DNA from: a virus
Lineage: Duplodnaviria; Caudoviricetes
Virus record (IMG/VR): IMGVR_UViG_3300025424_000012
Coordinates: 1-56,242 of that record
Direction: 5' to 3' (one strand)
DNA: 56,242 bases
A model generated the notes under the pieces. It saw only the letters and a program-made list of their open reading frames with translations. It was not told the DNA's origin and did no database searches. A program made the position numbers and the translations under genes. Shown here in pieces: positions 198 to 55,390 of this stretch (the first letter of the stretch is position 1; each line of letters opens with the position of its first letter).

Positions 198-448
198 GGC
201 TTGGTTTCCACAAAGCTGCTCAACTTGCGTAACCACTTTAGAGAATCGTCATTGGCCTTGATGGCGCGCCACACGCGTCCGTTTTCGTGCATGGAGCCTA
301 TTTCAACTTCAATTCTTCTCATCCCCATTGCCGGCCCCCAGGGCTCTACAGTGTCGTACGCTGGAATTGTCAAACGGTCTTCTTTTGGCATGGAAATGTT
401 GAGGTGGCCCATCAGCTTGCCGGTGTCGTGCCAGCGAATTTCAATCAT
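194..448 (-). CDS. Hypothetical protein
   Basis: 84-aa ORF whose start overlaps the integrase stop (ATGA). Confidence 0.65.
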   Translation of the reverse strand: MIEIRWHDTGKLMGHLNISMPKEDRLTIPAYDTVEPWGPAMGMRRIEVEIGSMHENGRVWRAIKANDDSLKWLRKLSSFVETKP

Positions 449-1452
449 CGTACAGCCTTCAGTTTCACCGGCTTGGTCCGGTAGTGGGTATCCGTCAGTT
501 TCGTCGTGCTGTGTTGCAGCAGGGCAGAGGCTGCGGCCAGGTCATCGGCCAGGTTCGCGGCGCGCTTGCGCATGTCGCGGTTGTACATCGCCAGGATTTG
601 ATCTGCCAGATGGGGATTGGCCTTCGCGGCCTTGGCCCGAGCATCGTCCCAGCGGTCGGTAAGCATGCGCTCGGACACCTGCCGGCCGGTATCGGTAGTC
701 AGGAACATGACGCTGTACGCCTTCATGGCAAGCCTGCGCTCCAACAGGGCCGACAGTACGGGGCTTTGGGATACCTCGAATTCGGCCCATTTTGCCGTCT
801 TCCCAGCCTTGAATCGCATTACCCCTGCCACGGGTAGCCGGATGGTGCGAACGTCGCTTACACGCATGCCGGTGGCCGTAGCCAGATCCATGCTGTCGCG
901 CAGGATTCTGTCAGCCTGGGCGTAGACGGCGGCAAACAATTCGTCGGTGACTTCGACCACCCTGGGCTGCTCCTTGTTCTTCCAGTCCTTCACGCCAGCA
1001 GCGGGCCAGGGCAGGGCGGTCATGCCCCAAAGCCTGGCCTTGCTCCAGACAATGGACAGCACCGACATTTCCCGGTTGCCCTGCGTCTTGGCGCTGCGCT
1101 TGTCCAAGTAGGCCCGCAACAGGGGCAGCGTGATCTCGTGCCAAGCCATGCCGCCGCACCAAGCTTCGACCTGGGCCAGTTGCTTTGCGTAGCTGCGCCT
1201 GGTCTCCGGGTTTTCGTACTTGGGCAGCTCGCGCTCGCGCCAGCGCTCGATAGCCTCGCGCACGGTGCCCACGGTCAGGGGCTGATGGTTGTGCAGCTTG
1301 TCCCACTGGGCGATGGCCTGGGCGTAGTCCCGGCCCAGCCGTACATCGGGCTTCCCCGTGCCGCGCATGTCATAGACGTAGTACACCCAGCGCTGACCGT
1401 TGGCGCCCTTGTAGACCTTCGTGCGAAGGCGGGGATACTTCGACCTTTTCAT
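445..1452 (-). CDS. int: Tyrosine recombinase (phage integrase)
   Basis: TGMRVSDV (R), RDMR, LLQH and THY catalytic-type motifs; adjacent to att. Confidence 0.95.
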   Translation of the reverse strand: MKRSKYPRLRTKVYKGANGQRWVYYVYDMRGTGKPDVRLGRDYAQAIAQWDKLHNHQPLTVGTVREAIERWRERELPKYENPETRRSYAKQLAQVEAWCGGMAWHEITLPLLRAYLDKRSAKTQGNREMSVLSIVWSKARLWGMTALPWPAAGVKDWKNKEQPRVVEVTDELFAAVYAQADRILRDSMDLATATGMRVSDVRTIRLPVAGVMRFKAGKTAKWAEFEVSQSPVLSALLERRLAMKAYSVMFLTTDTGRQVSERMLTDRWDDARAKAAKANPHLADQILAMYNRDMRKRAANLADDLAAASALLQHSTTKLTDTHYRTKPVKLKAVR

Positions 1453-4591: not shown

Positions 4592-5583
4592 GCACCCCCT
4601 TTCTCTGTTGCGGCAATGGCAGCGTCAATTTCTGCCATCGCTTCGTGGTCGGCTTCGCTTACTCCTGTGGGGTAGGCGTCTTGATACCAAGCAAGGCCAT
4701 TGCGCGCCAATTTCAGCGCCTCCAGCAGTTGCGCATTGACCGCCGCATGCGGGGATGTGCAAGCGTTGCCATGTACAAGGTCGCGCACTTCGCCAGCTAA
4801 CTCGCGGAGCGTGTTGTAGTAATCTTCTTTTGCCTCGCTGCGGAACTCCCAAGTTCCGGTGTCTGGATCTTGTCTAGAGTAGTCGGTAGCAAAGTCATCA
4901 GCTTTCTTGTCCAGCATGGCTGCCGCAGCATTTACGCCATTGGTAAATTCGTCCACCGCCTCCCCTGCCGCTGCTTGCGCCGACCCCGTAGCCAAGACTG
5001 AATCCGGCCCACACGTTGCCACCTGCGCCGCATCAATCGGGTCATACGACTGCGTAAAGGCTGGCGGGTTCGGGTCGCCTTCAATCTGTTTCCTTGGCGC
5101 TGCCGCTGCTTGCTGTACTGGGGGTGCTGGTAGTGGCATCCAGTGGGTCGGGTTTGGAATCATCCCGCCGCCACAATCAAGCCAGTCGTCAAAACCATCG
5201 TGTTCTTGCTGGTCAACGTAAACGCCGGCAACGTCTCTTTTTTCTCGGACGTATGGTTCTTCATGCTCCCACCATCCCTGCGCCACCGTTGCGCCGTTTG
5301 TCAAGATGATGTGCGTCCCATCCCTCGGCGCACTCTCAATCGGCCTCCACTGCGGCTGCCCTTCCAGGGCTTCGAGTGCGTCTGCGGCTTTGTTCAAGCA
5401 ATGACCAGCTTCGCAGCCGGTACTGATGCGCGCGCCCTTCCAGGACGACCCAATTTCAAACGCTTTCTTAAACCCAAGCCACAGATCGCAAAAGCCAATG
5501 CCGTAGGCATCGCCGCAGCGCCAGTTTTCAGAGCCGGGGAATGCGGCCTGAAAGCGTTGATGGATTGATTCAGGTGTAATCAT
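4588..5583 (-). CDS. Modular protein with DUF551-like domain
   Basis: WRPIESAPRDGT...PTHWMPLPAPP; C-terminal LLEALK...AAIA module. Confidence 0.8.
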   Translation of the reverse strand: MITPESIHQRFQAAFPGSENWRCGDAYGIGFCDLWLGFKKAFEIGSSWKGARISTGCEAGHCLNKAADALEALEGQPQWRPIESAPRDGTHIILTNGATVAQGWWEHEEPYVREKRDVAGVYVDQQEHDGFDDWLDCGGGMIPNPTHWMPLPAPPVQQAAAAPRKQIEGDPNPPAFTQSYDPIDAAQVATCGPDSVLATGSAQAAAGEAVDEFTNGVNAAAAMLDKKADDFATDYSRQDPDTGTWEFRSEAKEDYYNTLRELAGEVRDLVHGNACTSPHAAVNAQLLEALKLARNGLAWYQDAYPTGVSEADHEAMAEIDAAIAATEKGGA

Positions 5584-6203
5584 TTAATCCTCCTAAATTC
5601 AACAACCCAAACCCAAGGGTTTGCATCCCATGAACCGGCGCCGTTGATGGATTCCCATAGCTCTGCATACTCAAATCGAGCAAAGTCGTTAGGAGCCCAA
5701 TTGCGCGGATGTTTCCCTGAAAACTGGCTCGGACTAACTTTGCCCGTGATGCGCAATAGCGGGGTGCCAGAATGGCTGCACGGGATGCGGACGCCCTCAG
5801 CAAACGCATCGGCCCCGCTGATGTCCTGCAGGCGCTCGACGCGCACGCCGGGAATCTCCAGCGTGATGCGGCTGGCCCAGCGTGGCATGAATATGCCGGG
5901 GCGCAGCTTGCCAGCATTGAAGTGGGGCAGAGAACCGGCACCGTCTGCTTGGTAAACAATCGGCGAGCCGACTGGAATTTCACGGGGCGGCGTCAGTTCG
6001 TAGGCCAGCGACGAGCGCCACGCCTCCCGCACCCAAAGCTGATCGCCGGGCTGACCGTAGGGGCACTTTGTTTGTCCCGGCACATAGGCCACACGCACGC
6101 CCGGTGGCGGCTGATCGCGCCATGCCCGCCGCGTATGCGTCTTGCTGTCATCCAGCAAAGCCCGCACCATCGGGCCGTTGTAAAGAATGGGCCGGGACTT
6201 CAT
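5580..6203 (-). CDS. ASCH/PUA-like phage protein
   Basis: RPILYNGPMVRALL..KT.TRR, PGDQLWVRE, MPRWASRI, NPWVWVVEF. Confidence 0.85.
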   Translation of the reverse strand: MKSRPILYNGPMVRALLDDSKTHTRRAWRDQPPPGVRVAYVPGQTKCPYGQPGDQLWVREAWRSSLAYELTPPREIPVGSPIVYQADGAGSLPHFNAGKLRPGIFMPRWASRITLEIPGVRVERLQDISGADAFAEGVRIPCSHSGTPLLRITGKVSPSQFSGKHPRNWAPNDFARFEYAELWESINGAGSWDANPWVWVVEFRRIK

Positions 6204-8080
6204 GCTGCCATCCTTTCCGCAAACTGCTCGCTGTAATTGGCAGCCACATAGGCGCGGGCCATCGGGGGACACACAGAATTTCCGACCATACGCACTTGGG
6301 CAGTTTTGGTCAGCGCGCGCCCGTCTCCGCCTCGCTCAATCTGGTACGTATCTGGAAAACCTTGTGCCCGGTAGAGCTCGCGTGGCGTGAGCATGCGCAG
6401 GCCAATGTCCACAATCGCGTAGTCCTGGCCCTTGATAGTGACCAAGCCAAAGCGGTCCTTGGTCGTGATGGTGTGCAGCGGCTCTCGTAGCTGCGGGTCT
6501 TGGTCGGTGCCGTAGTATTTCACCAAGAAGGCGCGGACCTCGGCATGGTGGGTGCCCTGGGCACTGATGGTTGCCAGGGGTGAGTCTGTGGGCTGGCCCA
6601 CGTTGTCGCCGCGCAGCTTGATAAGGTTGCTGGTGACAACTGCAGCCGGCATGCCGTTGGCGGTAACCGTGTTGAGCGGTTGCGCAACATCCCGGATGCC
6701 ATGGCTGAATCGCTTGGTGCCATCTTTGCCTTCGCCGTGGCCCATGTGCACCAGATGCGCCGCCACCATCGCGTGCCGGTTCTCGGTCACGGTTGTTTTC
6801 AGCGGTGCCGTGGCCGGGCTGTGGCCACCCTGGCTGCTCTGGTTGTCGATGGTGACCATGTGGGCAGTGATCAGCCCGTGCCGGTTCTCGGTGGTCTGTG
6901 TCTTGACAGGATCGCGCACGTCGCTGGCGCGCACATCAGATGGCCTCTTGTCCGAGTGGTAGTGCACCAATGCGGCAGTCACCAAGCTGTTGTGATCCAC
7001 GCTTGTGACGGTTGCCAGCGGGTCAGCCATGTCACTTCCCACCACGCCGCCGTAGTGCTTGGCAATGAACGCCGTTACCAGGGCATGCTTTTCCGTGCCA
7101 ACCAGGGTGCCAATGGGCTTTTCCAATCCGGGCACGCGCGGTGCCTGGCCTTGGCGCTCTCCGTAGCCGGTCTGGATAAGCGTCGGTACAACCAGGGCGC
7201 GGTGATTCTCGACCGTAACCGTGCCAAATGGCTTTGTCGTTGGCGCTGGCTTGCCTGCATAGATGGGCCCACCTTGGCCCACGATAAACGGATCGGCCGC
7301 ATCGACCACATACCGCATGATGCCCTTGGCAATGCGCCTGCATGTGGCCTCGGCCAATGGCTTTGAGCGCTCAAAAATACTCGGGGCCGGGATGCTCCAG
7401 TCGATGCATTCCGCAGCCGTGCGCCACGGCTTCAGCTTCTTTTGTTTGACCGGCAGGCTGGCCGGCGCGCCGTGGGTCTGCTCGGGAAACACGATGGGCA
7501 AGCCGTCGCAGCGGGCCACCAGAAACAGACGTTTGCGAATGGTCGGGGTTCCGAAGTCGCTTGCCCGGTCTTCACGAAAATCGACCTTGTAGCCCAAGTT
7601 TTCCAGTGATTTTTTCCAGCGCTGAAAGGTGCGTCCTTTGCGCTGCGGGCATGGCCGGTCATCTGCACCCAGCGGGCCCCAGGTCTGGAATTCTTCGACG
7701 TTCTCCAGAAAGATGACGCGCGGCCGCACCAGCTTGGCCCACTTGACCACGACCCAAGCCAGCCCGCGAATCTTCTTGCTGACCGGCTTGCCGCCCTTGG
7801 CCTTACTGAAATGCTTGCAGTCCGGTGATGCCCAAAGCATCCCCACAGGCCTGCCTTCGACCACGGTAACGGGGTCAACTTCAAACACGTCCGAGACGTA
7901 ATGCAGGGTCTGGGGATGGTTGGCTTGATGAAGCGCCACGGCCTCGGGGTCATGGTTGATGGCAATGTCGACATGGCGGCCAATGGCCTGCTCGATTCCG
8001 GTTGAAGCGCCGCCACCGCCCGCGAACAGGTCAATTACGAGCTCATGGGCCAGGGGCAGGATGTACTGTGGTTTAAGCAT
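6200..8080 (-). CDS. C5 DNA cytosine methyltransferase
   Basis: DLFAGGGG (motif I), SPDC (IV), ENV (VI), RKRLF (VIII), GNSV (X). Confidence 0.93.
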   Translation of the reverse strand: MLKPQYILPLAHELVIDLFAGGGGASTGIEQAIGRHVDIAINHDPEAVALHQANHPQTLHYVSDVFEVDPVTVVEGRPVGMLWASPDCKHFSKAKGGKPVSKKIRGLAWVVVKWAKLVRPRVIFLENVEEFQTWGPLGADDRPCPQRKGRTFQRWKKSLENLGYKVDFREDRASDFGTPTIRKRLFLVARCDGLPIVFPEQTHGAPASLPVKQKKLKPWRTAAECIDWSIPAPSIFERSKPLAEATCRRIAKGIMRYVVDAADPFIVGQGGPIYAGKPAPTTKPFGTVTVENHRALVVPTLIQTGYGERQGQAPRVPGLEKPIGTLVGTEKHALVTAFIAKHYGGVVGSDMADPLATVTSVDHNSLVTAALVHYHSDKRPSDVRASDVRDPVKTQTTENRHGLITAHMVTIDNQSSQGGHSPATAPLKTTVTENRHAMVAAHLVHMGHGEGKDGTKRFSHGIRDVAQPLNTVTANGMPAAVVTSNLIKLRGDNVGQPTDSPLATISAQGTHHAEVRAFLVKYYGTDQDPQLREPLHTITTKDRFGLVTIKGQDYAIVDIGLRMLTPRELYRAQGFPDTYQIERGGDGRALTKTAQVRMVGNSVCPPMARAYVAANYSEQFAERMAA

Positions 8081-9452
8081 TGGTTCTCCGAAAACTCTTG
8101 GTGAAGTGAAAATCAACGGCATGACCGCGCTGGCGCATGGCCTGAGCAAGCCTCGCGCGGTCGTTGTGGCTGTGGCTGGATTGGCGAAGAAGCCCGAAAT
8201 AGCTGTTCCCGGCCTCAAAAGTGTCGTCATCACCCAAGGTGTGAATCCGGGATATAGCGCTGTTGACCGTCCGAGCTCTTGTGGTCCGCCGCCATGGCTT
8301 GACCACAAAACCAACGAAGTCCACGCCACGTTCCACCGGCTGGATGATGGTTTTTCGGTCATTCAGACGCGCACCAAGCCGCTCGGGCAAGAACTCCCGG
8401 ATCCTGCGGTGTGCATCGCCGAGCCACGCCGACGACTCATGCAGGATCACAAAATCATCGACATACCGGACGTAATGTCGCGCGCCGATCTGGTGCTTGC
8501 AAAATTGGTCCAAGGCGTCCAGGTGGACATTGGCGAAGAATTGCGAGCTCAGGTTGCCAATGGGTAACCCGGTATTGGCCGGCGAGCAAAGCAGCCTCTT
8601 GTGGGCTGGCACGCGGCCCATGAGCGCAGGATCGCCGCGGTATTGATACGACTGGCGCGGGTCATGGAACAAGATGGTCCTGGCCAACTCCAACCAGAAG
8701 GGTTCGTGCACTTTGGCCGCGAGCTGGGCAAACAGAATGTGCTTGTCGATCGCCACAAAGAAATTGGCAAGATCGAGTTTCAGATACCACGCAGGCCGGG
8801 CCCAGTTCTGGGTGATGGACCGGATACCGCTTTCCAAGCGTTTGGCGGCGTACAGCGTGCCCCTGCCGGGTATGCAAGCGCTGCTGCCGGCCACAAAGCC
8901 AGCATGGAAGCGCGGGGCTATCTGGTTGTACAGACGGTGATGAACAATCCGATCACGAAATTCGGCAGCCCAGACCTCGCGGTGCTTTGGCCTGGTGATG
9001 ACAAAGCAGATGGATGGACCTGGGCGGTATTGGCCGGAAGAAAGCTCTTCGAACAGCTCGCACAGGTTGCGCTCCAGGGCTTGCTCGAAAGCAAGTGCAC
9101 TGGAAGTGTTGCGCTTAGTCTGGCGGCAGTCCAAATAGGCCTGCAATAGCTGATCGAATGAGACTGACGATGAATCTGCTGACGGCGCGAGCCAGGGCCT
9201 CGTAGGACTTGTTGTTGTTGTTCTGGTTGCCGTTGTTGAAGTTCTGATTCCAGGCGTTGTTCTCGGAGTACTGCGTCGATTCGCGCCATCCACGTCGCCA
9301 CGCCGAAGGCCTGAGCCGATCAGTTTGGAAACTGCACCGGACCGGGTCTGCGCTTGGGCAGCGGTATCCGTGATGTGCATGTCCGTGGCCTTGTGAGCCA
9401 GGGGCGCGACCAGATTCAAATTTCGCACGGGCATGATGACCTTGACCGTCAT
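8073..9452 (-). CDS. DGR reverse transcriptase (start uncertain; conserved core from ~9165)
   Basis: RDRIVH, LKLDLANFF, GLPIGNLSSQ (DGR-type SQ), YVRYVDD, GVDFVG; adjacent to TR and avd. Confidence 0.96.
   Translation of the reverse strand: MTVKVIMPVRNLNLVAPLAHKATDMHITDTAAQAQTRSGAVSKLIGSGLRRGDVDGANRRSTPRTTPGIRTSTTATRTTTTSPTRPWLAPSADSSSVSFDQLLQAYLDCRQTKRNTSSALAFEQALERNLCELFEELSSGQYRPGPSICFVITRPKHREVWAAEFRDRIVHHRLYNQIAPRFHAGFVAGSSACIPGRGTLYAAKRLESGIRSITQNWARPAWYLKLDLANFFVAIDKHILFAQLAAKVHEPFWLELARTILFHDPRQSYQYRGDPALMGRVPAHKRLLCSPANTGLPIGNLSSQFFANVHLDALDQFCKHQIGARHYVRYVDDFVILHESSAWLGDAHRRIREFLPERLGARLNDRKTIIQPVERGVDFVGFVVKPWRRTTRARTVNSAISRIHTLGDDDTFEAGNSYFGLLRQSSHSHNDRARLAQAMRQRGHAVDFHFTKSFRRTNA
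9173..9276 (-). repeat. DGR template repeat (TR)
   Basis: AAC-rich (11 AAY codons); differs from both VRs only at coding-strand adenines. Confidence 0.97.
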
Positions 9453-9811
9453 GCTGCAGGCGACAAACGAGCCGATTTAAGCCAGCCGCCGGCTTGCTTG
9501 CCAATGCTCTCGGTAAGCTGGATTGCTCCAGCCCAGAGCTTGGGCGACACAAAGCGCTTGTCATGGCTCAGGCGAAGCAACAGGGTTACGACTTCAAGGC
9601 GCTCGACCAACGCGATGATGTGCGGAGCCCTGCCCATACCCCGCGCCGCATTGGCGCGCCCGATCAGGACAAGGATTTCCACGCATTCCGTGTGAATCTT
9701 GCTGCCCAAGCTGGCCTTGAAGGCGCGCGGCATGTTCTGCTGCACGTCAGCTGCCAGACTCAAAAGGTCATAGCCCTGTTTGTAAATCGGGAGTTGGGTA
9801 TGGAGTGCCAT
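9449..9811 (-). CDS. avd: DGR accessory variability determinant (four-helix bundle)
   Basis: LPIYKQGYDL, MPRAFKASLG, IGKQAGGWLK; 120 aa, located between target genes and TR. Confidence 0.92.
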   Translation of the reverse strand: MALHTQLPIYKQGYDLLSLAADVQQNMPRAFKASLGSKIHTECVEILVLIGRANAARGMGRAPHIIALVERLEVVTLLLRLSHDKRFVSPKLWAGAIQLTESIGKQAGGWLKSARLSPAA

Positions 9812-9842
9812 GGCTTAAATCAAATTCAAAAGGACTGAAGGC

Positions 9843-10346
9843 TTAAAGCGGAAATCTGCTGACGGCGCGAGCCAGGGCCTCGTAGGACTTGCGGCGGTCG
9901 TCCTGGGTGCCGTCGGTGAAGTCCTGACTCCAGGCGCTGCCCTCGGAGCACTGCGTACCCGTCCAATGCCACTCGCTCGTATCCAGCTTGTCCTGCAGAT
10001 TTGCGTAAAGAAGCGCTGATTCAAACCGCGTTGGCAGGCGGGCACCGTTGCCCAAAGATTCGGCCCACTTGACGGCAGCAGCCCACGCCTGCTTTTTTTC
10101 GGGTACAGCATTGAGCAGCACCAGGTGGCCGTCCGGCTCGCCATCCAGACCACGGGAAAGACCGGCATACACGCCATCCAAACCGGGCCACGGCTCGCCG
10201 ATCTTGGGGAACACGCCGACCTCGGGCGCGGTTCCAGCCGGCGGCTCATCGTCCGGAATGGACTTGACCATCAGACCTTCGATAAAGGCCTTGACGATGG
10301 CTGACGGGCCGTCTTGAATGTGAATGTTCACGGTGTTGATACGCAT
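9843..10346 (-). CDS. DGR target protein 1 (DUF1566/CLec-like)
   Basis: W..A..WA, RLPTR.E, WHWTGTQ...AW.Q.F...ARAV; C-terminus is VR1. Confidence 0.92.
   Translation of the reverse strand: MRINTVNIHIQDGPSAIVKAFIEGLMVKSIPDDEPPAGTAPEVGVFPKIGEPWPGLDGVYAGLSRGLDGEPDGHLVLLNAVPEKKQAWAAAVKWAESLGNGARLPTRFESALLYANLQDKLDTSEWHWTGTQCSEGSAWSQDFTDGTQDDRRKSYEALARAVSRFPL
9853..9956 (-). repeat. DGR variable repeat VR1
   Basis: 104 bp aligned to TR 9173-9276; 15 mismatches, all at TR adenines. Confidence 0.97.
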
Positions 10347-10380
10347 GGTTTGCTCCAGTTGAAATAAAGGATTAAAGGGC

Positions 10381-11001
10381 TCAAGCACTGAGTTGAATCA
10401 GCCTGACGGCGCGAGCCAGGGCCTCGTAGGACTTGAGGCTGTAGCCCTGGTAGCCGTGGCCGAAGAACTGATACCAGGCGTAGCCCTCGGAGTACTGCGT
10501 GCTTGACCAATACCAGCGCTGCTCGAAAGCCTCCGGGCCATCTTCACGGAAAACATCTGCCGTGGTCTGGATCGGGCTTTGCTCGGTGTATGGATAGCCG
10601 GCAGGGATGCTGCTGGGGTTGTCGCCGTCGCGGAAGCTGGCGGAGTTTTCATCCGTGCCAGGCTTCAGGTTGCGGTAGGCCAGCTCGAGCACGTCGCGGG
10701 CAGGAATGCACCAATCCTTGTGGCCATTGATTTCCAGCCCCAGGGCCCACTTTGCCAGCGGGCTGCCGGCTTCGGCCATGGCAACGGTGTTGTCCATGCT
10801 GTGAAAGCAGCTGGCGGCGTTGGGTACGTCGGTATAGCTGGGCAGCCAAATGGATTTCTTCTCGCCCAAAGCCTTGGGCGCCCAGACAATGGCGAACTTC
10901 TTCGTGCCCCCGTGGCTGTTGATGGTGCCGCCGTAGAACCCACCTTCAAAGGCGGTAGCGAATTGGGCTGGGACGAGGATGGATGGTTTGTTTTGGTTCA
11001 T
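10381..11001 (-). CDS. DGR target protein 2 (DUF1566/CLec-like)
   Basis: GHKDWCIPARDVL, WYWSSTQYS..AW.Q.F...ARAVR; C-terminus is VR2. Confidence 0.93.
   Translation of the reverse strand: MNQNKPSILVPAQFATAFEGGFYGGTINSHGGTKKFAIVWAPKALGEKKSIWLPSYTDVPNAASCFHSMDNTVAMAEAGSPLAKWALGLEINGHKDWCIPARDVLELAYRNLKPGTDENSASFRDGDNPSSIPAGYPYTEQSPIQTTADVFREDGPEAFEQRWYWSSTQYSEGYAWYQFFGHGYQGYSLKSYEALARAVRLIQLSA
10403..10500 (-). repeat. DGR variable repeat VR2
   Basis: 98 bp aligned to TR 9179-9276; 16 mismatches, all at TR adenines. Confidence 0.97.
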
Positions 11002-11044
11002 GGTGATCTCCAGTTAAAAAAGCGATGGTTGGGAAAAGGATTGG

Positions 11045-11866
11045 TCAGGCCGTTGCCGGCTCTGTGCTGCGGTCAAACAATGGCCGCTGATCCGGCTCGC
11101 CCTTGGTCATGTCATCGGGTATGGCCAGAAGCTCGTCGTTCTGCTCGATGATCACGGTCACAAAACCGCCGGCCACGTCCGCCAGGCTGTGGGCTTCGCT
11201 GTTGGCCATGAGCTTGAGGGTGGCCTTGACTTCGGCTTCGCCTTTGAAATTGACTTTTTCAACCTGGGCGCGGAACTCGATCCGGCCGTGGTGGGCAATG
11301 ATGCGAATCGCCTTCTGTGCGGCGCGGCGAACATCGTCAGCCAATCCAGTCAGCACGCGCTCTTGCTCGCCTTCGCTGAGTTGGGACCATGGCACAGCCA
11401 GATCCATGAAGCGCAGCTTTGCGGCGCGCATCAAGTCGCCAACCATGAAAATTTCCGCATGGCCTTCGGTTCCAAATGCCGTGCTTGGAGCCTTGAGGAA
11501 CAGTGCGAGCACATCGTCGCCAATCTGATCGTCCTGGTTGCTCAGTTCCACGATGGCGGCAAGTTGAAATTCGTCGTCAGGTTTCTTTGGTTCCCAACCT
11601 TCCGCTATGGCGTCTTTGCGAAAAGACTTAATGATTTTTTTGGCAGCAGCGGATGTGTCGTCCGACAGGCGCACCCAGGCAAAGGAATGACCGGCAGCGG
11701 CGAGACGGGCTTCCAGGGCCTCGATCTCATCCTTTTCCATCACGCCGGACGTGTGGATTGGAAGTGCAGCGGCTGCGCCAAAGCCGGAGGCAACATTGGT
11801 GCCGACGAATTTCAAAGCCTCGGGGCTCAGGTCGACGAGCAAAGGCGTAACGGTTTCAGTGTTCAC
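11045..11866 (-). CDS. Hypothetical phage protein
   Basis: 273-aa ORF with AAAGGA RBS and GTG start. Confidence 0.8.
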   Translation of the reverse strand: MNTETVTPLLVDLSPEALKFVGTNVASGFGAAAALPIHTSGVMEKDEIEALEARLAAAGHSFAWVRLSDDTSAAAKKIIKSFRKDAIAEGWEPKKPDDEFQLAAIVELSNQDDQIGDDVLALFLKAPSTAFGTEGHAEIFMVGDLMRAAKLRFMDLAVPWSQLSEGEQERVLTGLADDVRRAAQKAIRIIAHHGRIEFRAQVEKVNFKGEAEVKATLKLMANSEAHSLADVAGGFVTVIIEQNDELLAIPDDMTKGEPDQRPLFDRSTEPATA

Positions 11867-11895
11867 GGGAATGGTCCTTTAGGGTTGGGGGTGAC

Positions 11896-12183
11896 TTAAG
11901 CGGTTGCCGGCTCGGCGGCAAACTTTTCAAACGGCAGCGTCTTGATGTGCTTGCCGAAATAACTGCCAATGGACTCGGCGGTTTTGAAGGCTTCGAACAC
12001 CTCGGCAGACACGTCCGGGTAGTGATAGATCGCTCCGGTGCCCCGCGTGAAAGTCACGGCCAGGGTTTTGCTGTCGGCTGCGTAGCCAATGGCCGCGATC
12101 TGGTTTGAAACCACGGGCTGCAGCTCGATCTGCGGGCGCGGACGGTCTGAAAATGCTTGTGGTTCGGGAAACTTCTTTTCCAT
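11896..12183 (-). CDS. KTSC-domain protein
   Basis: V.SNQIAAIGY...L.V.F....Y.Y.DV........AESIGSYF..HIK. Confidence 0.88.
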   Translation of the reverse strand: MEKKFPEPQAFSDRPRPQIELQPVVSNQIAAIGYAADSKTLAVTFTRGTGAIYHYPDVSAEVFEAFKTAESIGSYFGKHIKTLPFEKFAAEPATA

Positions 12184-12210
12184 GGTTGTTGCTTCAGTTG
12201 GTTGAAAAAA

Positions 12211-13923
12211 TTAGGCGGCTTGCTTGGCCTGGACGCCTTCGACGTGCTTGACGATCGCGGCGCAGATCAGGGTGAAATCAGACTCGCGGTAAAGCTTCGC
12301 GGCCTTGTCGGTTGCGACGTGGGTAAAGCCCAGCGCAGCCAGGTTGTCGGCGCTCAGGGAAAGCGGCGCCAAACGGGCATTGATGTCGCCGAGCTTGATG
12401 CGCTTGCCGGTATCAACTGGCGCGCGAGCAGGCATGGCGATCACGTTGGCTGCGGGTGTAGGTGCGGCAACCGGCGCGGCGGGCGCTGGGGCCTGTTCTG
12501 GCGCGGGTGCTGCGGCCTTTGCTGCGGCTTGCTCTGCCTCCAGCTTCTCGCGTGCTTCACGCTCCGCCTTGGCTTGTTCCTCTGCCCGGATGGCCGCGCG
12601 CTCGGCTTCCAGACGACTCTGCTCGGCTGCCTGGTGCTCGGCAATCCGAGACTTGACCAGGGCCTGTAGGTCGTCCGTGGCTTTCAGGACAATGACCGCG
12701 GCGTCCGGAAAAAGGGCGCGGTAGTCGGCGGCGTTGTCGCGCAAGTACTGCAGATTGAGGTCGATGCGGTCTGCAATGGCGCCGGCTTCAATCTTGGCGC
12801 GGGCCAGTTCGTCGGAAACCTTGCTTTCCATGCTGGCCAGGGATTTCAAGCCCTTGACCACGCCGCCGAAGTCGGTAGCGATGGTTGGCATGTAGGGCTT
12901 GCCAAGCCGGGTATTCATGGCGTCGATGTGCGCCTTGAATTTGGTTGCTCCAGCGTTGACGATTTCGAGCTTGCGGCGGTCCTTTTCGGCCTTGAGAATG
13001 TCCTCGGCGAGCTTGACGTTCTGCTGTAGCAAAGAGTCCAGCATGTCCTTGGTCTTCTTGGCCTGGTCAACCGGCTGCACCTGGGCCAGCATCTGCGCCT
13101 CTGCCGCCTTGAGGGCTTCGCGGGCCTTTTTCATGGCCCTGATCTGCTCGTCAAGGTCGGCAAAGTCTTGATCGGATTCGGGCTTGCGGATCAGCTTGTT
13201 TTCCAGAAAGTCGCGTAGGCGCTGCTCAAACACCTTGAAGTTGTCCTGCAGGGCGATCTGGCCGGATACCTGCACTACGGGAGCGGGTAGCGCCTCTACT
13301 GCCTCGGCGACGACTTTCTCGGTCTTGATTTCGCTGGGCACGTATTCGGCCAAATCCTTCTCGAACTGCTCCCAGCCGGCCACGATCTGGGCGCGCAGGG
13401 CAAGGTCTGGCTCATACCAGCAATGCCCTTCCGCAAGCAGCGCCCCGTCCTCCCAATGGGATGCCATGAACAGCACGCGCTCGCAGCCTGACACCATGGC
13501 CTGATGCTCCATCTGAACCCGGTACATCAGCGGCAAGTCAGCGCCCGTGCGACCTTTAACCAGGGCGAAGCGCAATTCGGCGTTAAGGCTCTTGTGTTCA
13601 AACGCGATGTGTTCCACCATCGTCAGGCCGTCGAAGCTGGCGCTGTATTTGCCCTCGGAGCCGGTGACCGGGAAAAGGTCTTCGCCGATGATCTTTTCGG
13701 CCAGCGGTCGGGCCAGGGCTTCAAAGCGGTGACCGGCATCGAACCGGCGCTGGGTTTCCGGATCGACCTCTGGCGCAATGCCGGTGTGCAGGCGGTGCAT
13801 CAGCTGGGTGCGCGTTTCGTGCGGGCTGCAGCCCATCATGGCCGGGGCATCGCTGGCGTTGAAGTGCTGGGCGCGGTGGGCCAGCCATTCCGGCGAGCCC
13901 TGGATAAGGGAATGGGTTTTCAT
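12211..13923 (-). CDS. YqaJ-like viral recombination exonuclease with coiled-coil extension
   Basis: QGSPEWLAHR, ASDAP, GH.FE, SASFDG, FEHK, Y.VQM.HQ. Confidence 0.92.
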   Translation of the reverse strand: MKTHSLIQGSPEWLAHRAQHFNASDAPAMMGCSPHETRTQLMHRLHTGIAPEVDPETQRRFDAGHRFEALARPLAEKIIGEDLFPVTGSEGKYSASFDGLTMVEHIAFEHKSLNAELRFALVKGRTGADLPLMYRVQMEHQAMVSGCERVLFMASHWEDGALLAEGHCWYEPDLALRAQIVAGWEQFEKDLAEYVPSEIKTEKVVAEAVEALPAPVVQVSGQIALQDNFKVFEQRLRDFLENKLIRKPESDQDFADLDEQIRAMKKAREALKAAEAQMLAQVQPVDQAKKTKDMLDSLLQQNVKLAEDILKAEKDRRKLEIVNAGATKFKAHIDAMNTRLGKPYMPTIATDFGGVVKGLKSLASMESKVSDELARAKIEAGAIADRIDLNLQYLRDNAADYRALFPDAAVIVLKATDDLQALVKSRIAEHQAAEQSRLEAERAAIRAEEQAKAEREAREKLEAEQAAAKAAAPAPEQAPAPAAPVAAPTPAANVIAMPARAPVDTGKRIKLGDINARLAPLSLSADNLAALGFTHVATDKAAKLYRESDFTLICAAIVKHVEGVQAKQAA

Positions 13924-13926
13924 GGC

Positions 13927-15030
13927 TTACTCCTGAATCTCGGTTGAACGGCGCTCGTAAATGGCCTTGAGCTCTTCGCGTTGCGTGCCATCGGCAACGG
14001 AATTGATCAGGCTCCCGGCTTCGGCCAGCTTGTCCAGGGTGTCGGCCTTGTTCAATTTGTCGGCCACCTGGGGATAGGTGAAGATCACTTCGCCGTCTGC
14101 TGTTGCTTTGGCCGGCGCGGCACCCTTGATGGCGGCTTGCTGGGCCTCGGTCAGTTGGTGCTTGCTGGATGCCATGGCGATGATCTGGTCGGCAGTCTTC
14201 TTGCCGTCAGCAATGGCCTTGTGCCAGGTCGGCAATGCCTTGTCGAACTGCTCTTGCGGGTAGGTCGTTTGCTGGGCCTGGGCGGCTTTGGGGGCTTCAC
14301 CGTCAACCGCAAAGGCCTGCTCTGGCGTGGTGTCGCCGTCCTTGATTGCCGTCAGCATGCCGCGTAGCAGGAGCAGATGCTCAAGGGAAATATCCTCGGC
14401 ACCGGCAATTCCCAGCTTGGCAAATACCTGATCGTTGCTCACGCCGTATTTCAGAAATGCGCCCAGCGCATCGGCGCGGCGATTCGCCAGCGTCTTCACG
14501 TCACCCATAGCCGTCTGGCGGGCAGAGTCGTACATGTCGGCCCAAAAGGCTTTCGGAATGCCCTTGAGGATGGCATTGCGCAGGGCGATTGAGCATGCCG
14601 CGTTGGCCGTGACCGCGATCATGTCGGCACCGAAACGCTTGCCGGCCTTGTTGGTGATCCGGCGCTGCACTTCGTAGGTAATGGCGACGTTGCGCTGCAG
14701 GTCGTGGAACACGCCTTGCGCGGTCACAAAATCGCCAGCATCCGAAACGACGCGGGCACCGGCCCGGCCATTGCCCCATGCACTGGCGACAACCTCGGCG
14801 AAGCGTGCGCTGGGTCCTTCGATGGTTTTGCCGTCACGCGGCAGGGCGTAGATACATTCGCCGGCCACCTTTTCATTCAGCGTGACCATCTGCAGGACTT
14901 CATTGCGGAACTGCACGATGGAGCGCGGGTATTTGTGCGCCGTGGCAATCTGCATGTCGATTTCGCCCTTGTTGAGTAGGGCCAGGGTGCCGCTGTCGGC
15001 GGTGATGATTTCGGCTTCTTCGTTGTTCAT
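13927..15030 (-). CDS. Putative single-strand annealing protein (YqaJ partner)
   Basis: Directly upstream of YqaJ; QIATAHKYPR and IEGPSARFAE motifs; function inferred from context. Confidence 0.65.
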   Translation of the reverse strand: MNNEEAEIITADSGTLALLNKGEIDMQIATAHKYPRSIVQFRNEVLQMVTLNEKVAGECIYALPRDGKTIEGPSARFAEVVASAWGNGRAGARVVSDAGDFVTAQGVFHDLQRNVAITYEVQRRITNKAGKRFGADMIAVTANAACSIALRNAILKGIPKAFWADMYDSARQTAMGDVKTLANRRADALGAFLKYGVSNDQVFAKLGIAGAEDISLEHLLLLRGMLTAIKDGDTTPEQAFAVDGEAPKAAQAQQTTYPQEQFDKALPTWHKAIADGKKTADQIIAMASSKHQLTEAQQAAIKGAAPAKATADGEVIFTYPQVADKLNKADTLDKLAEAGSLINSVADGTQREELKAIYERRSTEIQE

Positions 15031-15039
15031 GGTGTGCTT

Positions 15040-15231
15040 TCAGTGTTTGGATGCGAGATAAAGGGTCAGGAAAAAGAAAGCCAGAAAGGCGACAACAGAC
15101 CCGATGTACTTGGGTCGGATGCGGTCAATCCATGCGTATTGGTCGTCTGCGGCTTCGCGCACGGGGTCAGACTTGGGCATACCCGCGCGGATCTGGCGGC
15201 TGCGGTAGAGGATGTGGCTGTCGTCGGTCAT
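15040..15231 (-). CDS. Small membrane protein
   Basis: C-terminal hydrophobic helix; GGAGG RBS. Confidence 0.6.
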   Translation of the reverse strand: MTDDSHILYRSRQIRAGMPKSDPVREAADDQYAWIDRIRPKYIGSVVAFLAFFFLTLYLASKH

Positions 15232-15232
15232 T

Positions 15233-16225: not shown

Positions 16226-16443
16226 TTGCGATACCCCTTTGGAATGCAGACCGGCTCACCATTGGCGGCATGAACCAGATGCGCCTCGCCGTAGGTTTCC
16301 CGGCAGTGCTTGGCAGCGGCCAGGTCACGATCCAGCGGCCTGACAGGCTCAGGCTCACGGAATCGGACATCAAGGTTGCAGCTGGCCGCAATGGCGAGTG
16401 CGGCAGCGCAGGCATAGAGCCAGGTGAAGAGCGGGCGGGTCAC
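16222..16443 (-). CDS. Small secreted/lipoprotein-like hypothetical protein
   Basis: GTG start overlapping the upstream stop; hydrophobic stretch ending LAIAASC. Confidence 0.55.
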   Translation of the reverse strand: MTRPLFTWLYACAAALAIAASCNLDVRFREPEPVRPLDRDLAAAKHCRETYGEAHLVHAANGEPVCIPKGYRK

Positions 16444-17332: not shown

Positions 17333-17372
17333 ACAAAATGGCAAATTTTTTTGAGTGGGGGTTGACCCCTGC

Positions 17373-17678: not shown

Positions 17679-17701
17679 GCTCAATTGTTTTCCAGAACCC
17701 T

Positions 17702-17743: not shown

Positions 17744-17749
17744 TTGGGT

Positions 17750-48936: not shown

Positions 48937-49617
48937 ATGGCCACAGGCGACCAAAACGACATTTTCGGCAGGCTCAACAGCCTGCTGCCCAGCCGCTGGT
49001 TTGTCGGCAGCACGCCGATCAAAGACGCCGTAATGACGGGCATCGCGGCGGTGTTCGCGCAGACCTACGGGCTGTACGCCTATACCAAGCTGCAAACCCG
49101 CATTTCGACACTGACAGACGGCTGGATCGACACCGCAGCAGCGGACTATTTCGGCACCGGGCTGACGCGCAATCTCGGGGAATCAGATGCTGCCTACTTG
49201 GCGCGCGTGAAAGCCAATTTGCTGGCCCCGCGCACCGCGCGCCCGGCAATGGTTACCGTGCTGACTCGGCTGACAGGCCGGGTGCCGACGATCTGGGAGC
49301 CAAACAACCCGGCGGACATGGGTGCCATGAACGCGCCAAAGTCACCGGGGTATTGCGGCGTGGCCCGGTTTGGATCAATGGCGGTACCGTTTAACGCATT
49401 GATTCTGGCGTTTCGGCCAATGGTCACCGGCCAGGTCTCGGCAGGCGCGGCATTCAGCAACGCGCCCAAGCTGTCCGCCATGAACACCCCGCTTTCCCAG
49501 GGCTACACCGGATCGCTCGGCTCGCAGTCTTCAAGCGCGACGGATGCTGCCATTTACGCGGCGGTCAACGCCACCAGGCCGGCCGCTTCCGTGGTGGGCG
49601 TCTCGATCAGCAACTAG
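48937..49617 (+). CDS. Baseplate wedge protein (I-like)
   Basis: QTRIST.TD.W.D..A.DYFG..L.R..GESD..Y.AR. Confidence 0.78.
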   Translation: MATGDQNDIFGRLNSLLPSRWFVGSTPIKDAVMTGIAAVFAQTYGLYAYTKLQTRISTLTDGWIDTAAADYFGTGLTRNLGESDAAYLARVKANLLAPRTARPAMVTVLTRLTGRVPTIWEPNNPADMGAMNAPKSPGYCGVARFGSMAVPFNALILAFRPMVTGQVSAGAAFSNAPKLSAMNTPLSQGYTGSLGSQSSSATDAAIYAAVNATRPAASVVGVSISN

Positions 49618-49638
49618 ACCAACACTTTCAGCAAACCC

Positions 49639-49662
49639 AGCCCGCCGCGTGCGGGCTTTTTT
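49639..49662 (+). terminator. Rho-independent terminator
   Basis: AGCCCGC-CGCGT-GCGGGCT followed by TTTTT. Confidence 0.7.
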
Positions 49663-49678
49663 CATTGGAGACCAATAC

Positions 49679-51427
49679 ATGGATCGCGTCGAAACCTACG
49701 TCGGACAGTCAATCTACGAGTGGTATTTCAGCAAGCAGGCCCAGAACGACATGGTGGGCCTTGGCCGCCTTTCCGCCGCGCTCATGGGCACCGCTGGAAT
49801 GGTCAATGGCTTGGGCTGCACCCAGACCACGGTCGCCTCCATGCAGGTTTCCATCGGTCAGGGTGAGCTCTACCAGCTGGCCAGCCTCGAAGCAACGGTT
49901 TGCGGCACGCTGCCCGTGAACACCACGGACCAAGTTCTCAAGCAAGGCATCCTGCTGGGCTCGGCCGCCCCGTACAACCTTCCGGCCAGCAGCACCTTTG
50001 CCACGCCTGGCAGCTCGGGCCAGTCCATCAATTACTTGATTGAGGCCCAATATCAGGATCAGGACGTCAGCGTCGACCCGACCACTGGCGCTACACCGGT
50101 CACGCTGAATTTCTACAACTCGTCCAATCCTTCGACGCCTTGGAGCGGCCCCAACAACACGGGCGCCAGCAGCAACACTTTCCGCAAAGGTGTCATTGCT
50201 TGGCAAGTTAAGGCCGGAACTGCGGCCACCACCGGCACACAGACCACGCCATCGCCGGATTCCGGCTGGATCGGGCTGTACGTGGTCACGGTGGCCTATG
50301 GTGCTTCCAGCATCACAAACAGCAACATTGCCGTTTACCCTGGCGCGCCTTTCATTGCCAGCGGCGGCGTGATTGCTGGCGGCCTGCAAGGCAACGGCTT
50401 TGTTATTTCGACCGCTGGCGGCACGTCTGACGCCTTGACCGGCAGCTACTCGCCCGGAATTACCGCTGTGACCAATGGCATGAGCTTGTTGCTGCGCGCC
50501 GGAGCGGCGAATGCAACGACCACGCCCACCTTTACGCCGAACAGCGGCGTCATTGGCGCTGTGACCATCGTCAAAGGCAGCGGCACGCCATTGAATCCCG
50601 GCGACATTGCAGGTGCCGGGCATTGGATCGAACTCCAATACGACTCAAGCCTCGCAAAATGGGTGTTGCTCAACCCGGCCACTGGGGCCGCACCGGCAAG
50701 CTCTGCGCCTGTCGGCTCTGTGCGCAACTTGAAGATGTCCATTGCGGCTGCAAGCGCTACCGCAACGCTGACCGCTGACGAAATCATCGTTGAAGCGGCC
50801 CTTGGCGGAGCATCCTACAAACTTGCCAGTTTCAACAAGACGATCAACCTTGCCACCACGGGCGCGGGCGGCATGGACACCGGCACGGCGCCTGTCTCTG
50901 GGTATGTCGCGGTCTACGCCTTTTACAACCCGGCCACTGGATCGTCCGCGCTGGTGGGATACAACGCCACCTCCGCTGTCGCGCCAAACATTTACGGCGG
51001 TGCCAATGCGCCCAGCGGCTACACCGCCAGCGCCTTAATTTCCGTTTGGCCAACCAATGCCAGCAGCCAGTTTGTAGCCGGGCTCCAGCGTGACCGAAAG
51101 GTGTCAATTGGTGGCGTCACCGTATTGACTTCTGGATCGAATCAAGCGTCGTATGCATCGCTGTCGATTTCTGTTGCAGCGCCCAAAAACGCGCTGGCCG
51201 TAAGCGGTTGTATCAATGTGACATCCACGTCTTCTACTTTCTGCACTGGCGCGGTGACGCCGGACGGAACAAGCGACATTCAACAAATTGCAGCCAGCAA
51301 CGTGGTTCAAATACTAGCGCCATTTCGCGATTTGCCAATTTTGACCGCTCAAACGCTGTATTACGCGGCTTTTGTCAACGCCGGTACTCCGTCGATTTCC
51401 GTTGTTGTATCTGGCTACACCTTTTAA
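49679..51427 (+). CDS. Tail fibre protein
   Basis: After baseplate; Thr/Ser/Gly-rich beta modules; GAGGMDTG.AP motif. Confidence 0.85.
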   Translation: MDRVETYVGQSIYEWYFSKQAQNDMVGLGRLSAALMGTAGMVNGLGCTQTTVASMQVSIGQGELYQLASLEATVCGTLPVNTTDQVLKQGILLGSAAPYNLPASSTFATPGSSGQSINYLIEAQYQDQDVSVDPTTGATPVTLNFYNSSNPSTPWSGPNNTGASSNTFRKGVIAWQVKAGTAATTGTQTTPSPDSGWIGLYVVTVAYGASSITNSNIAVYPGAPFIASGGVIAGGLQGNGFVISTAGGTSDALTGSYSPGITAVTNGMSLLLRAGAANATTTPTFTPNSGVIGAVTIVKGSGTPLNPGDIAGAGHWIELQYDSSLAKWVLLNPATGAAPASSAPVGSVRNLKMSIAAASATATLTADEIIVEAALGGASYKLASFNKTINLATTGAGGMDTGTAPVSGYVAVYAFYNPATGSSALVGYNATSAVAPNIYGGANAPSGYTASALISVWPTNASSQFVAGLQRDRKVSIGGVTVLTSGSNQASYASLSISVAAPKNALAVSGCINVTSTSSTFCTGAVTPDGTSDIQQIAASNVVQILAPFRDLPILTAQTLYYAAFVNAGTPSISVVVSGYTF

Positions 51428-54407: not shown

Positions 54408-54779
54408 ATGAAGAAGTTCTTTTTGTTCCTTGCCGCCGCTGTCCTGGCGCTGGCTTTCGCCGCGTGCACCACGACCGGAGCGCCCAACGCCACCCAGGTG
54501 CAAGCCATCCAGCAAGCCTGCGCCATCGATGCCGGCGTGCGGCCCAGCGTGACCGTGCTGCTGTCCATTCCCGGCCTGGCCACCGTCCAGGAGGTTGCGG
54601 CCGTTGCCGCCGCTCGAGCGGTGATTGACCCCATTTGCGCCAATCCCGCGGGCTCCGCGCAGGCCAACAGCCTGGCAGTGCTGAGTTCCGCGACCGGTCA
54701 GGTGACGTCGATTCTGATCCAGTTGCAGGCCCGAAAAGCTGGCTCAGTACCGGCACCGGTCGCCGCCGCGTCTTCGTGA
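54408..54779 (+). CDS. Lipoprotein
   Basis: MKK + hydrophobic core + FAAC lipobox; two further Cys. Confidence 0.8.
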   Translation: MKKFFLFLAAAVLALAFAACTTTGAPNATQVQAIQQACAIDAGVRPSVTVLLSIPGLATVQEVAAVAAARAVIDPICANPAGSAQANSLAVLSSATGQVTSILIQLQARKAGSVPAPVAAASS

Positions 54780-55390
54780 TCACCGTCCTGCAGTCGGCCC
54801 AGCTCGCCAGCGCAACCTATGCTGGCGTGCCTGCGGATTGGGATCGCCTGATCCAGACCGGGGATTTTGTTGGCGGCCTCAAAACCATCGACGGCGCCCA
54901 GGTCCTGGCCATCCGGGGCAGCCTGACCGCTGCCGACTGGATGCACGATGCCGAGGCCTGGCCGGAATGGGACCGGGAAATTGGCTTTGTCCACGCCGGC
55001 TTTCTGGCGGACGTAGACGACGCCCTGGCCCAGATCGAGCCGCTGCTGACCGGTCCGCTGACCATCCAAGGCCACAGCCTTGGCGGCGCGCGCGCCCGGA
55101 TCGTGGCGGCCAAGCTGCTGGTGCGCGGCAAAGCAGTCGCCCGGGTGTGCACATTCGGCAGCCCGAAGCCGGGTTTCGCCAACGTCGCGCGGATTCTGCA
55201 GAAGAGCGGCTGCGAGCATGTTAGCTATCGCAACCGCAACGACCCGGTGCCGCTGGTGCCGGGCATCCTGCCCGATTGGGTCCATCCCGAGCCGTGGATC
55301 GCCATGAACGAAGCGCCGGGCGGCGACGTGCTGGAAGCTCTGCGCGACCACAGCATGGATCTGTACATGCGCGGGGCTGCAAAGGTGTAG
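54776..55390 (+). CDS. Class 3 lipase (alpha/beta hydrolase)
   Basis: IRGS..DW, VHAGF, GHSLGG, TFGSP, DPVP.VP, DHSM..Y. Confidence 0.9.
   Translation: MITVLQSAQLASATYAGVPADWDRLIQTGDFVGGLKTIDGAQVLAIRGSLTAADWMHDAEAWPEWDREIGFVHAGFLADVDDALAQIEPLLTGPLTIQGHSLGGARARIVAAKLLVRGKAVARVCTFGSPKPGFANVARILQKSGCEHVSYRNRNDPVPLVPGILPDWVHPEPWIAMNEAPGGDVLEALRDHSMDLYMRGAAKV

Follow-up and report, generated by a model that had tools for sequence, protein, structure and literature searches.

We examined a 56,242-nucleotide stretch of viral DNA (IMG/VR record IMGVR_UViG_3300025424_000012, Caudoviricetes), hereafter the window, for the makeup and possible role of a candidate diversity-generating retroelement (DGR). 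On the minus strand the element reads, in order, target gene 2 (T2), target gene 1 (T1), the accessory gene avd, RT-15 RNA, a template repeat (TR), and a reverse transcriptase (RT) gene (Table 1). Judged from these parts, it is a complete DGR in which RT, Avd, the 5′ RT-15 RNA and TR form the mutagenic unit. A two-target DGR with the order target 2, target 1, avd, TR, RT had been proposed in an initial annotation of this DNA. That order is borne out by the mapping of genes, RNA and repeats, and the anatomy is now amended by the 192-nt Rfam RNA RT-15 between avd and TR, which had been missed. The phage is temperate and of the myovirus type.

Table 1. Positions of the retroelement components and of other features in the window
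Feature	Coordinates	Strand	Remarks
Target 2 (T2)	10381..11001	-	206 aa; single Lcl_C/DUF1566-type C-type-lectin (CLec) domain; conserved insert 121-146
Target 1 (T1)	9843..10388	-	167 aa from ATG 10346, 181 aa from GTG 10388
Variable repeat 2 (VR2)	10403..10500	-	16/16 mismatches to TR at TR adenines
Variable repeat 1 (VR1)	9853..9956	-	15/15 mismatches to TR at TR adenines
avd accessory gene	9449..9811	-	120 aa; Pfam bAvd PF22296, phrog_3206
RT-15 RNA (RF03018)	9274..9465	-	192 nt; from avd 3′ end to TR start
Template repeat (TR)	9173..9276	-	104 nt, 35 A, 11 AAY codons in targets' frame; within open RT frame
DGR reverse transcriptase	8073..9293	-	stop 8073; start uncertain; conserved sequence from near 9170; nearest upstream canonical start GTG 9293
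C5 cytosine DNA methyltransferase	6200..8080	-	Pfam DNA_methylase 3e-33; likely start 8080, longest open reading frame to 8362; directly downstream of RT
RecE-like recombination exonuclease	12211..13923	-	phrog_7655 6.3e-181; upstream of cassette
Tyrosine integrase	445..1452	-	phrog_1 1.3e-19; end of leftward arm
Helix-turn-helix repressor-like gene	17373-17684		
Tail fiber gene	49544..51427	+	phrog_11518 5.4e-48; not a DGR target
Esterase/lipase-like gene	54635..55390	+	phrog_21992 8.3e-33; right end of record, past tail-fiber region

Organization of the retroelement

Three copies of a repeat of approximately 104 nt are present on the minus strand (9179-9291, 9859-9971 and 10403-10515). Compared in ungapped register on this strand, VR1 differs from TR at 15 of 104 nt (11 A>G, 4 A>C) and VR2 at 16 of 98 nt (7 A>G, 7 A>T, 2 A>C), with every mismatch located at a TR adenine. 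Given the adenine content of TR, the chance of such a distribution is ∼8e-8 for VR1 and ∼3e-8 for VR2. Each VR is read in frame and occupies the C-terminal end of one of the target open reading frames (ORFs), leaving 8-20 nt (3-7 codons) between the end of the repeat and the stop codon. In this frame, TR translates as TQYSENNAWNQNFNNGNQNNNNKSYEALARAVSR. An adenine-tolerant scan and blastn of all 56,242 bases revealed no further TR-like copies, including none in the tail fiber gene. Thus, the mismatch counts and the 11 AAY codons given in the initial annotation were reproduced exactly, and the lack of TR similarity that it noted at the 3′ end of the tail fiber extends to the entire gene.

A GC-rich 3′ block of 33 nt is invariant across TR, VR1 and VR2. 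Beyond this block VR2 diverges from TR immediately and VR1 does so 6 nt further on, a divergence point that fits an initiation-of-mutagenic-homing (IMH/IMH*) type of boundary. No stable hairpin was found 3′ of the VRs when the DNA was folded (z-scores +0.82 and −0.12). The pattern of the repeats indicates that, in two neighboring genes, the final ∼100 nt were replaced by adenine-mutagenized sequence derived from TR. By analogy with Bordetella phage BPP-1, we infer mutagenic retrohoming as the mode of action, whereby TR RNA would be reverse-transcribed with misincorporation opposite A and the resulting cDNA would replace the VR.

The RT matches Pfam RVT_1 (6.6e-13) and phrog_1423 (8.9e-110). 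Its best solved relative is chain 8ub7_A (E 8.2e-42), with group II and retron RTs far behind (E 2e-11 or weaker). The structure match is labeled only "Reverse transcriptase", and we take it to be the BPP-1 enzyme. The motifs IGNLSSQ and YVDD of the window RT align with IGSLTSQ and YMDD of this chain, and IGxxxSQ is a signature of DGR RTs. This signature was looked for in PMC5758913 without result. Homology to the solved RT begins near 9161, aligned to residue 14 of 8ub7_A, and the frame is open upstream across TR and RT-15 to an ATG at 9452, which forms an ATGA overlap with the stop codon of avd. Because the start-codon listing has no ATG, GTG or TTG in this frame between GTG 9293 and TTG 9146, and because the frame is open to 9452, TR appears to be embedded in the 5′ reading frame of RT. 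Within this 5′ coding region TR is read in a different frame than in the targets.

The avd product scores above threshold with Pfam bAvd PF22296 (51.5 bits, cutoff 40), matches phrog_3206 "Avd protein of DGR" (8.7e-29), and reaches 45.9 bits with NCBIfam DivGenRetAVD, under the cutoff of 80 for that model. The RT-15 RNA aligns over the full model (1-192) with a cmscan score of 172.1 bits (gathering score 82, E 6.7e-43). It overlaps the stop codon of avd and occurs at the equivalent place in all eight related loci scanned (L001-L004, L010, L013, L015, L022). Its position in the window and in these relatives therefore places a structured RNA 5′ of TR in this clade. Weinberg et al. reported RT-10 as the RNA located between TR and RT of BPP-1, and made no assignment for RT-15 (PMC5737381; here and below, statements on the literature refer to the accessible portions of the papers cited). 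Given an RNA 5′ of TR, the cDNA-priming geometry of the clade may differ from the BPP-1 model.

Variation of the targets in natural populations

The 167-aa form of T1, which is the version recorded in the protein collection, belongs to a 90% cluster of 17 proteins. Fifteen of these members were covered, and the 14 of them that are full-length have a near-identical scaffold carrying eight different VR1 strings (seven besides the window type). Similarly, a T2 sister cluster, 88% identical, comprises 11 members with eight VR2 strings. The variation across cluster members is concentrated at AAY-coded positions. Because near-identical scaffolds carry many versions of the VR, the lineage diversifies in nature, and we consider it nearly certain that the DGR is real and belongs to an active lineage. 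The initial annotation had let its case depend on whether the VRs vary across strains, and eight versions of each were found.

The window stretch is present in 24 listed freshwater-metagenome runs, and there are no RNA runs among the matches listed. Its own repeats recur unchanged: window-type VR1 on 18 contigs and in four other members, and window-type VR2 on 23 contigs, with Q169H, a non-adenine change, as the one exception. Metagenome contigs examined for the repeats (X10, X12, X16, X18) break at TR, VR1 and VR2, leaving parts of VR1 uncovered in X16 and X18. Those from X10 and X12 that span the VRs have window-type VRs. The sole VR difference among the four sets is 10495 C>A in X12 and X18, which is non-adenine and produces Q169H. 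Contigs drop rare variants, and therefore these data cannot show the absence of minority VR variants.

Unchanged recurrence of VR1 and VR2 over many contigs, including those of X10 and X12 that span them, is what a frozen relic would yield, in which diversification occurred in the past, the target sequences are now fixed and the DGR is inactive. We judge such a relic to be very improbable, given that RT, Avd, RT-15 and TR are all intact with catalytic motifs present, that essentially identical scaffolds carry the seven other VR1 versions, and that the X10 and X12 contigs are subject to the loss of rare variants noted above.

Summed contig depth over the TR bin (9144-9247) is 33-409, compared with ∼5 elsewhere, and the loose ends differ among contigs. 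It follows that many related TR- or VR-bearing elements coexist in the same freshwater samples. Among four proteins with unusual ends (P0256, P0262, P0267, P0265), three with a T1 scaffold end with a T2-type tail (RLIQLSA) and one runs into post-TR sequence. Such ends would arise either from VR1/VR2 and VR1/TR recombination or from chimeric metagenome assembly across the repeat common to these sequences.

Genomic setting and related elements

The cassette is part of a leftward string of co-directional genes that extends from ∼16865 to the integrase with intergenic gaps of only tens of bases. Its members include the RecE-like exonuclease, a KTSC protein, a 273-aa unknown, T2, T1, avd, RT, the C5 methylase and a phrog_874 protein. 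Helicase, terminase, portal, sheath, baseplate and fiber genes occupy the rightward arm. The targets are encoded between the exonuclease and methylase genes, at a distance of 38.5 kb from the tail fiber gene, in agreement with their earlier placement between recombination genes and a methyltransferase far from the tail fiber. Assignment of the string to an early operon on the PL side is a reasonable inference from lambdoid gene order. A promoter and terminator scan of 5500-19000 yielded no more than background levels, with 4 and 19 sites where 3.5 and 16.2 were expected, and is uninformative on operon structure. Match names and run labels suggest that the host is probably a freshwater Burkholderiales bacterium.

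Relatives of the element in the phage collection were found at the protein level only, as megablast of 8000-11100 gave no match. By tblastn, the RT is 58-64% identical to sequences in 11 of 30 listed phage records: Shewanella phage vB_Sb_QDWS and an equal-length record under another name; Burkholderia phages Magia (two records), vB_E192a and vB_PL1; and Pseudomonas phages SC_8_H2H8_2017, Cruim01, Haboob, phPA-G and LPPA56. T2-like proteins occur in 19 phage records. The order of two small genes, avd and RT is shared by LPPA56, Cruim01 and Magia, where the cassette is preceded by genes of the ERF/RecT, nuclease and SSB types and followed by those for methylase and integrase.

Species-representative genomes yielded 28 loci in Burkholderiales, Rhodocyclales, Neisseriales-type bacteria and Pseudomonas, among which the order T2-like, T1-like, Avd, RT recurs. 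The module of two to three small targets, avd, RT-15, TR and RT is thus conserved in many prophages of beta- and gammaproteobacteria as well as in isolated phages. Every locus with both Avd and RT (24 in total, comprising three phage records and 21 genome loci) has VRs, two in 16 loci and three in the other eight. Across these 24 loci, 694 of 724 mismatches are at TR adenines. In five of the eight three-VR loci (L004, L005, L008, L010, L029), the third VR is 2.1-6.7 kb upstream of the cassette, where it resides in a further small T1/T2-like gene of the same prophage arm.

To characterize the surroundings of the cassette, we tallied four ORFs per side at 20 of the 28 genome loci. Six loci that are too short or cut (L011, L012, L023, L025, L026, L031) and two in which a T2-like gene has no nearby Avd or RT (L020, L021) were left out. 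The 80 upstream ORFs matched 21 Pfam families, none of them capsid or tail families. The matches include DUF2303 and Rv2179c-like exonuclease (5 each), YfbR-like (3), YqaJ, ParB, PrtN and dNMP kinase (2 each), as well as Gam, CII, RecT, KTSC and ANT. Among the 78 downstream ORFs, Phage_integrase (7), DNA methylases (4+2), ParB (3) and resolvase (2) are followed by host housekeeping genes, and no structural family is present among the 25 of 55 downstream families covered. Host genes are found within four ORFs downstream in several loci, and tRNA genes are nearby in two of eight loci scanned. The flanks are mosaic, and all-against-all BLAST of the neighboring ORFs revealed no universal partner gene.

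Phages that carry the cassette have unrelated tails, as illustrated by the sheath-bearing window phage, the "myophage" Magia, and Cruim01, which has tape-measure and major tail proteins and no sheath. In Pseudomonas phage Aurca01 (L032, 6256-7564), both target genes are present at the Cruim01 position while avd, RT-15 and RT are replaced by other genes, thereby leaving orphan targets that lack a diversifier. The early-arm placement described in the initial annotation is the same in the relatives examined. Its implied uniqueness was overstated, because many public phage and prophage sequences have this arrangement, and in Magia a sister DGR had been noted.

The announcement of Magia mentions a "potential DGR" with targets in "relatively short reading frames" (PMC7883833, 2021). 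Unannotated equivalents of the Magia DGR are carried by LPPA56, Cruim01, SC_8_H2H8_2017, Haboob, phPA-G, vB_PL1, vB_E192a and vB_Sb_QDWS, and the accessible part of the Cruim01 preprint makes no mention of a DGR. Like the window, the records of LPPA56, Cruim01 and Magia have two small lectin-fold genes, avd, RT-15, RT, and two VRs with A-only mismatches. The targets of Magia and its equivalents are only 26-50% identical to those of the window, and the flanking genes are mosaic.

The target proteins and their possible roles

T2 is a single-domain protein, and T1 is composed of a conserved ∼30-aa N-terminal motif, a Pro/Ala/Thr-rich linker and a shorter CLec domain. Pfam Lcl_C scores 28.1 bits with T2 and 16.9 bits with T1, both under the 34.9 cutoff. 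A PF07603 match is precomputed for P0001 and many relatives, and NCBIfam yields nothing for T2 and only a 20.9-bit Lcl match for T1. At E<=1e-3, at least 994 proteins of about 204 aa are related to T2. Longer forms are rare, with four matches in a search for them. A simple hydropathy and regular-expression test (not SignalP) detected no transmembrane segment, lipobox or signal-like region in T1 or T2, for which the maximum 19-residue hydropathy is 0.90 and 0.84, respectively. By the same kind of test, neither family has transmembrane segments, and lipoboxes are absent from all 120 T2-family and all 120 T1-family proteins. No trimerizing or fiber-like N-terminal domain and no effector domain was found on the targets or, for effectors, fused to them. 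Likewise, the defense library PADLOC gave no match for the targets or their neighbors except generic RT and methylase models.

An AlphaFold2 model of T2 (pLDDT 77.9, pTM 0.79) was built with a 37-row alignment (A3) drawn from 120 listed T2 matches, picked for spread and full length. The corresponding T1 alignment (A7) holds 39 of 120 listed matches picked in the same manner, and one 103-aa fragment, P0123, was omitted from alignment A2. The T2 model has a C-type-lectin fold, and its closest match is the C-terminal domain of Legionella Lcl (Z 12.9, root-mean-square deviation 3.2 over 125 residues). A Bacteroides fimbrial protein (Z 11.9) and the C-terminal domain of Bdellovibrio Bd2740 (Z 9.4) follow, and the DGR variable proteins TvpA and Mtd match with Z 6.5 and 6.2. 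Small stand-alone proteins with this fold are present in a viral structure library (one of 209 aa, TM 0.71, and a 186-aa protein of phage D3). Some long fiber-like proteins in the library also terminate in the fold, namely a 594-aa Peptidase S74 protein, a 1034-aa collagen-repeat protein and a 1417-aa "Tail fiber protein". Profiles, model and hydropathy results agree with the initial description of small CLec/DUF1566-like targets that lack a transmembrane helix. The description of T1 and T2 as paralogs is apt for the fold and the VR module and fails for the whole sequence, because BLASTP similarity is confined to the 37-residue VR part.

Residues 121-146 of T2 (window ∼10564-10641, minus strand) read FRDGDNPSS.PAGYPYTE..P.QT and are near-invariant over the 37 homologs. 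They form the sole internal region modeled at pLDDT <50, and may serve in partner binding or induced fit.

The two ORFs overlap by 8 nt (10381-10388) in different frames, and the start of the 181-aa form of T1 resembles the linker of natural fusions between the two proteins. In these fusions (P0078, P0081 and P0082; 346-352 aa), a Pro/Ala/Thr-rich linker connects a T2-like domain to a T1-like one, and both domains have a VR of their own. Since the fusions join both domains, the T1 and T2 products probably work together. A complex prediction using alignments A3 and A7 returned a score of 0.00 and carries no weight either way.

How might such proteins be used? The possibility that we consider most likely is that T1 and T2 are free-standing, soluble lectin-fold binders. 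They would be produced in the cytoplasm from the leftward early transcript without becoming part of the virion, and every genome, whether infecting or resident, would thereby put its binder variant directly to the test within the cell that it occupies. Several considerations favor a non-virion role. In every locus and record examined, the targets keep their place among early genes for DNA metabolism and integration. The module is mobile between phages whose tails are unrelated, its targets lack any domain for docking or trimerization, and targets also exist as orphans without RT. Moreover, selection would be clean if each genome tests its binder in its own cell. We regard it as an even call whether the targets are early-made cytoplasmic soluble binders outside the virion, and put the claim that they are non-virion soluble binders at about the same level. 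Whether a host defense or host-takeover protein is the ligand, as suggested in the initial annotation, is a more specific matter, for which we see a rather small chance. The bare lectin folds with no signal-like region are compatible with such a ligand.

Other observations weigh against this interpretation. The assignment to an early operon comes from gene order and strand only. The downstream neighbor tally covers 25 of 55 families, and the neighboring ORFs were called with a crude GC3-based script. The window VR1 and VR2 recur unchanged, and it is for the lineage, not for this individual genome, that the data demonstrate diversification. In addition, the closest solved structures with a known role are extracellular adhesin tips (Lcl, the fimbrial protein and Bd2740), and the same fold ends long tail-fiber-like viral proteins. 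The missing signal peptide does not separate the possibilities, because virion proteins need none.

The observations on the fold would also be expected if T1 and T2 were accessory receptor-binding adhesins that are produced in the cytoplasm and either dock noncovalently on the tail or fibers or, once lysis has released them, act on cell surfaces. For such adhesins, the ∼30-aa N-terminal motif of T1 with its flexible linker could be a docking peptide and the invariant but poorly modeled insert of T2 a docking surface. We consider this role possible though doubtful. Equally tentative is its corollary that the DGR switches tropism as in BPP-1 with the genes parked outside the tail module, in keeping with the fact that every functionally characterized phage DGR in the papers cited targets a tail protein. 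Neither proposal is readily reconciled with the neighborhood: no structural family is among the listed neighbor families of the 20 loci tallied, and in the records of LPPA56, Cruim01 and Magia the targets are next to genes for recombination, methylase or integrase. Furthermore, phages of unrelated tail architecture share the module amid mosaic flanks, and its targets lack a trimerizing or fiber-like N-terminal domain. No proteomics was found in the PMBT3 paper.

A comparison with BPP-1 reveals both shared and divergent features. Its cassette (mtd-avd-TR-brt), like that of the window, combines a CLec-fold target bearing a C-terminal VR with avd, TR and RT, its mismatches are adenine-only, and its Mtd protein is among the fold matches of T2. 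However, the BPP-1 target is one 381-aa tail protein encoded in the tail module, whereas the window has two stand-alone targets of 167-206 aa in the recombination/integrase arm. Neither a tail-module location nor an Mtd-like or fiber-like N-terminal part is present for the window targets. The RNA elements differ as well, with RT-10 between TR and RT in BPP-1 (PMC5737381) and RT-15 5′ of TR in the window. Unlike in BPP-1, TR in the window lies within the open RT frame and no GC-rich hairpin follows the VRs.

Small targets of this type belong to an established category of DGR targets. About half of category "d" (DUF1566/CLec2) of Wu et al. 2018 consists of short, domain-only proteins (PMC5758913), and in this category, which includes LdtA of Legionella, the VR is located inside a DUF1566/Lcl_C-type domain as in T1 and T2. 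LdtA is a surface lipoprotein (PMC5758913), whereas T1 and T2 are encoded in a phage early arm and have no lipobox, signal-like region or transmembrane segment. Cytoplasmic targets are also described for cellular DGRs, as putative antigen sensors of multicellular bacteria (PMC10907252) and as cyanobacterial regulators (PMC7517822). These provide a precedent for the diversification of proteins that are not displayed on a surface, as would be the case for soluble cytoplasmic T1 and T2. However, the cellular targets are chromosomal and carry signaling or conflict-system domains, whereas the window targets are bare CLec domains on a phage.

The cellular precedent (PMC10907252) invites another explanation, in which the cassette serves the lysogen and variable binders expressed by the prophage recognize proteins of superinfecting phages or other invaders for exclusion or sensing. 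The location of the cassette by integrase and methylase genes at the prophage end, with host genes within four ORFs in several loci and tRNA genes nearby in two of the eight loci scanned, is compatible with such a function. We nevertheless find it improbable, because the genes are co-directional within a long leftward string with gaps of tens of bases and no separate promoter detected, the targets neither have nor are fused to an effector domain, and PADLOC recognizes only the generic RT and methylase.

Extended to the entire clade, the reading of the targets as soluble binders would be that temperate-phage DGRs hypermutate free cytoplasmic lectin-fold proteins produced from the early arm, and not virion components. 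We advance this only tentatively. If true, the element would be an antibody-like, self-diversifying reagent against host defense or takeover targets during infection, or against proteins of competing phages in a lysogen, and would link genotype and phenotype within a single infected cell.

Some aspects of the system are already established, including short DUF1566-only targets (category "d" of Wu et al.), the sister cassette of Magia, and RT-15 as a curated Rfam family. In the accessible literature, phage DGRs are explained almost wholly by tail-fiber tropism switching of the BPP-1 type, and Roux et al. report that viral DGR targets are mostly tail proteins, with "non-structural" targets noted in passing only. 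We found no description or test of early-arm phage DGRs with small stand-alone targets in the literature searched, which includes the accessible portions of PMC8144416, PMC11661182, PMC10053308, PMC8421299 and bioRxiv 10.1101/2024.05.07.591244, and the DGR lists of Wu et al. 2018 and target clusters of Roux et al. 2021 may well contain the clade. Nor was there recognition in these sources of a coherent early/integration-arm clade with two to three bare variable domains and a 5′ RNA element.

The elements of this clade encode two to three bare variable lectin domains in the midst of recombination, methylase and integrase genes, and the phages that carry them have unrelated tails. If the targets act inside the cell, they would constitute a programmable binder system in phage-host or phage-phage conflict and a new role for DGRs in viruses. 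If they are virion adhesins, the element would be an ordinary DGR with an unusual gene placement. The question is experimentally accessible, as several relatives are in culture (among them Magia, LPPA56, Cruim01 and Haboob) and diversification of the lineage is evident in freshwater communities.

One of the four longer T2 relatives, P0269 (516 aa), combines a T2-like domain with an N-terminal part that has sub-threshold matches to DHH/DHHA1 phosphoesterases, and represents either a fusion or a gene-calling artifact. A DHH/DHHA1 ORF is located upstream of the cassette in one related locus.

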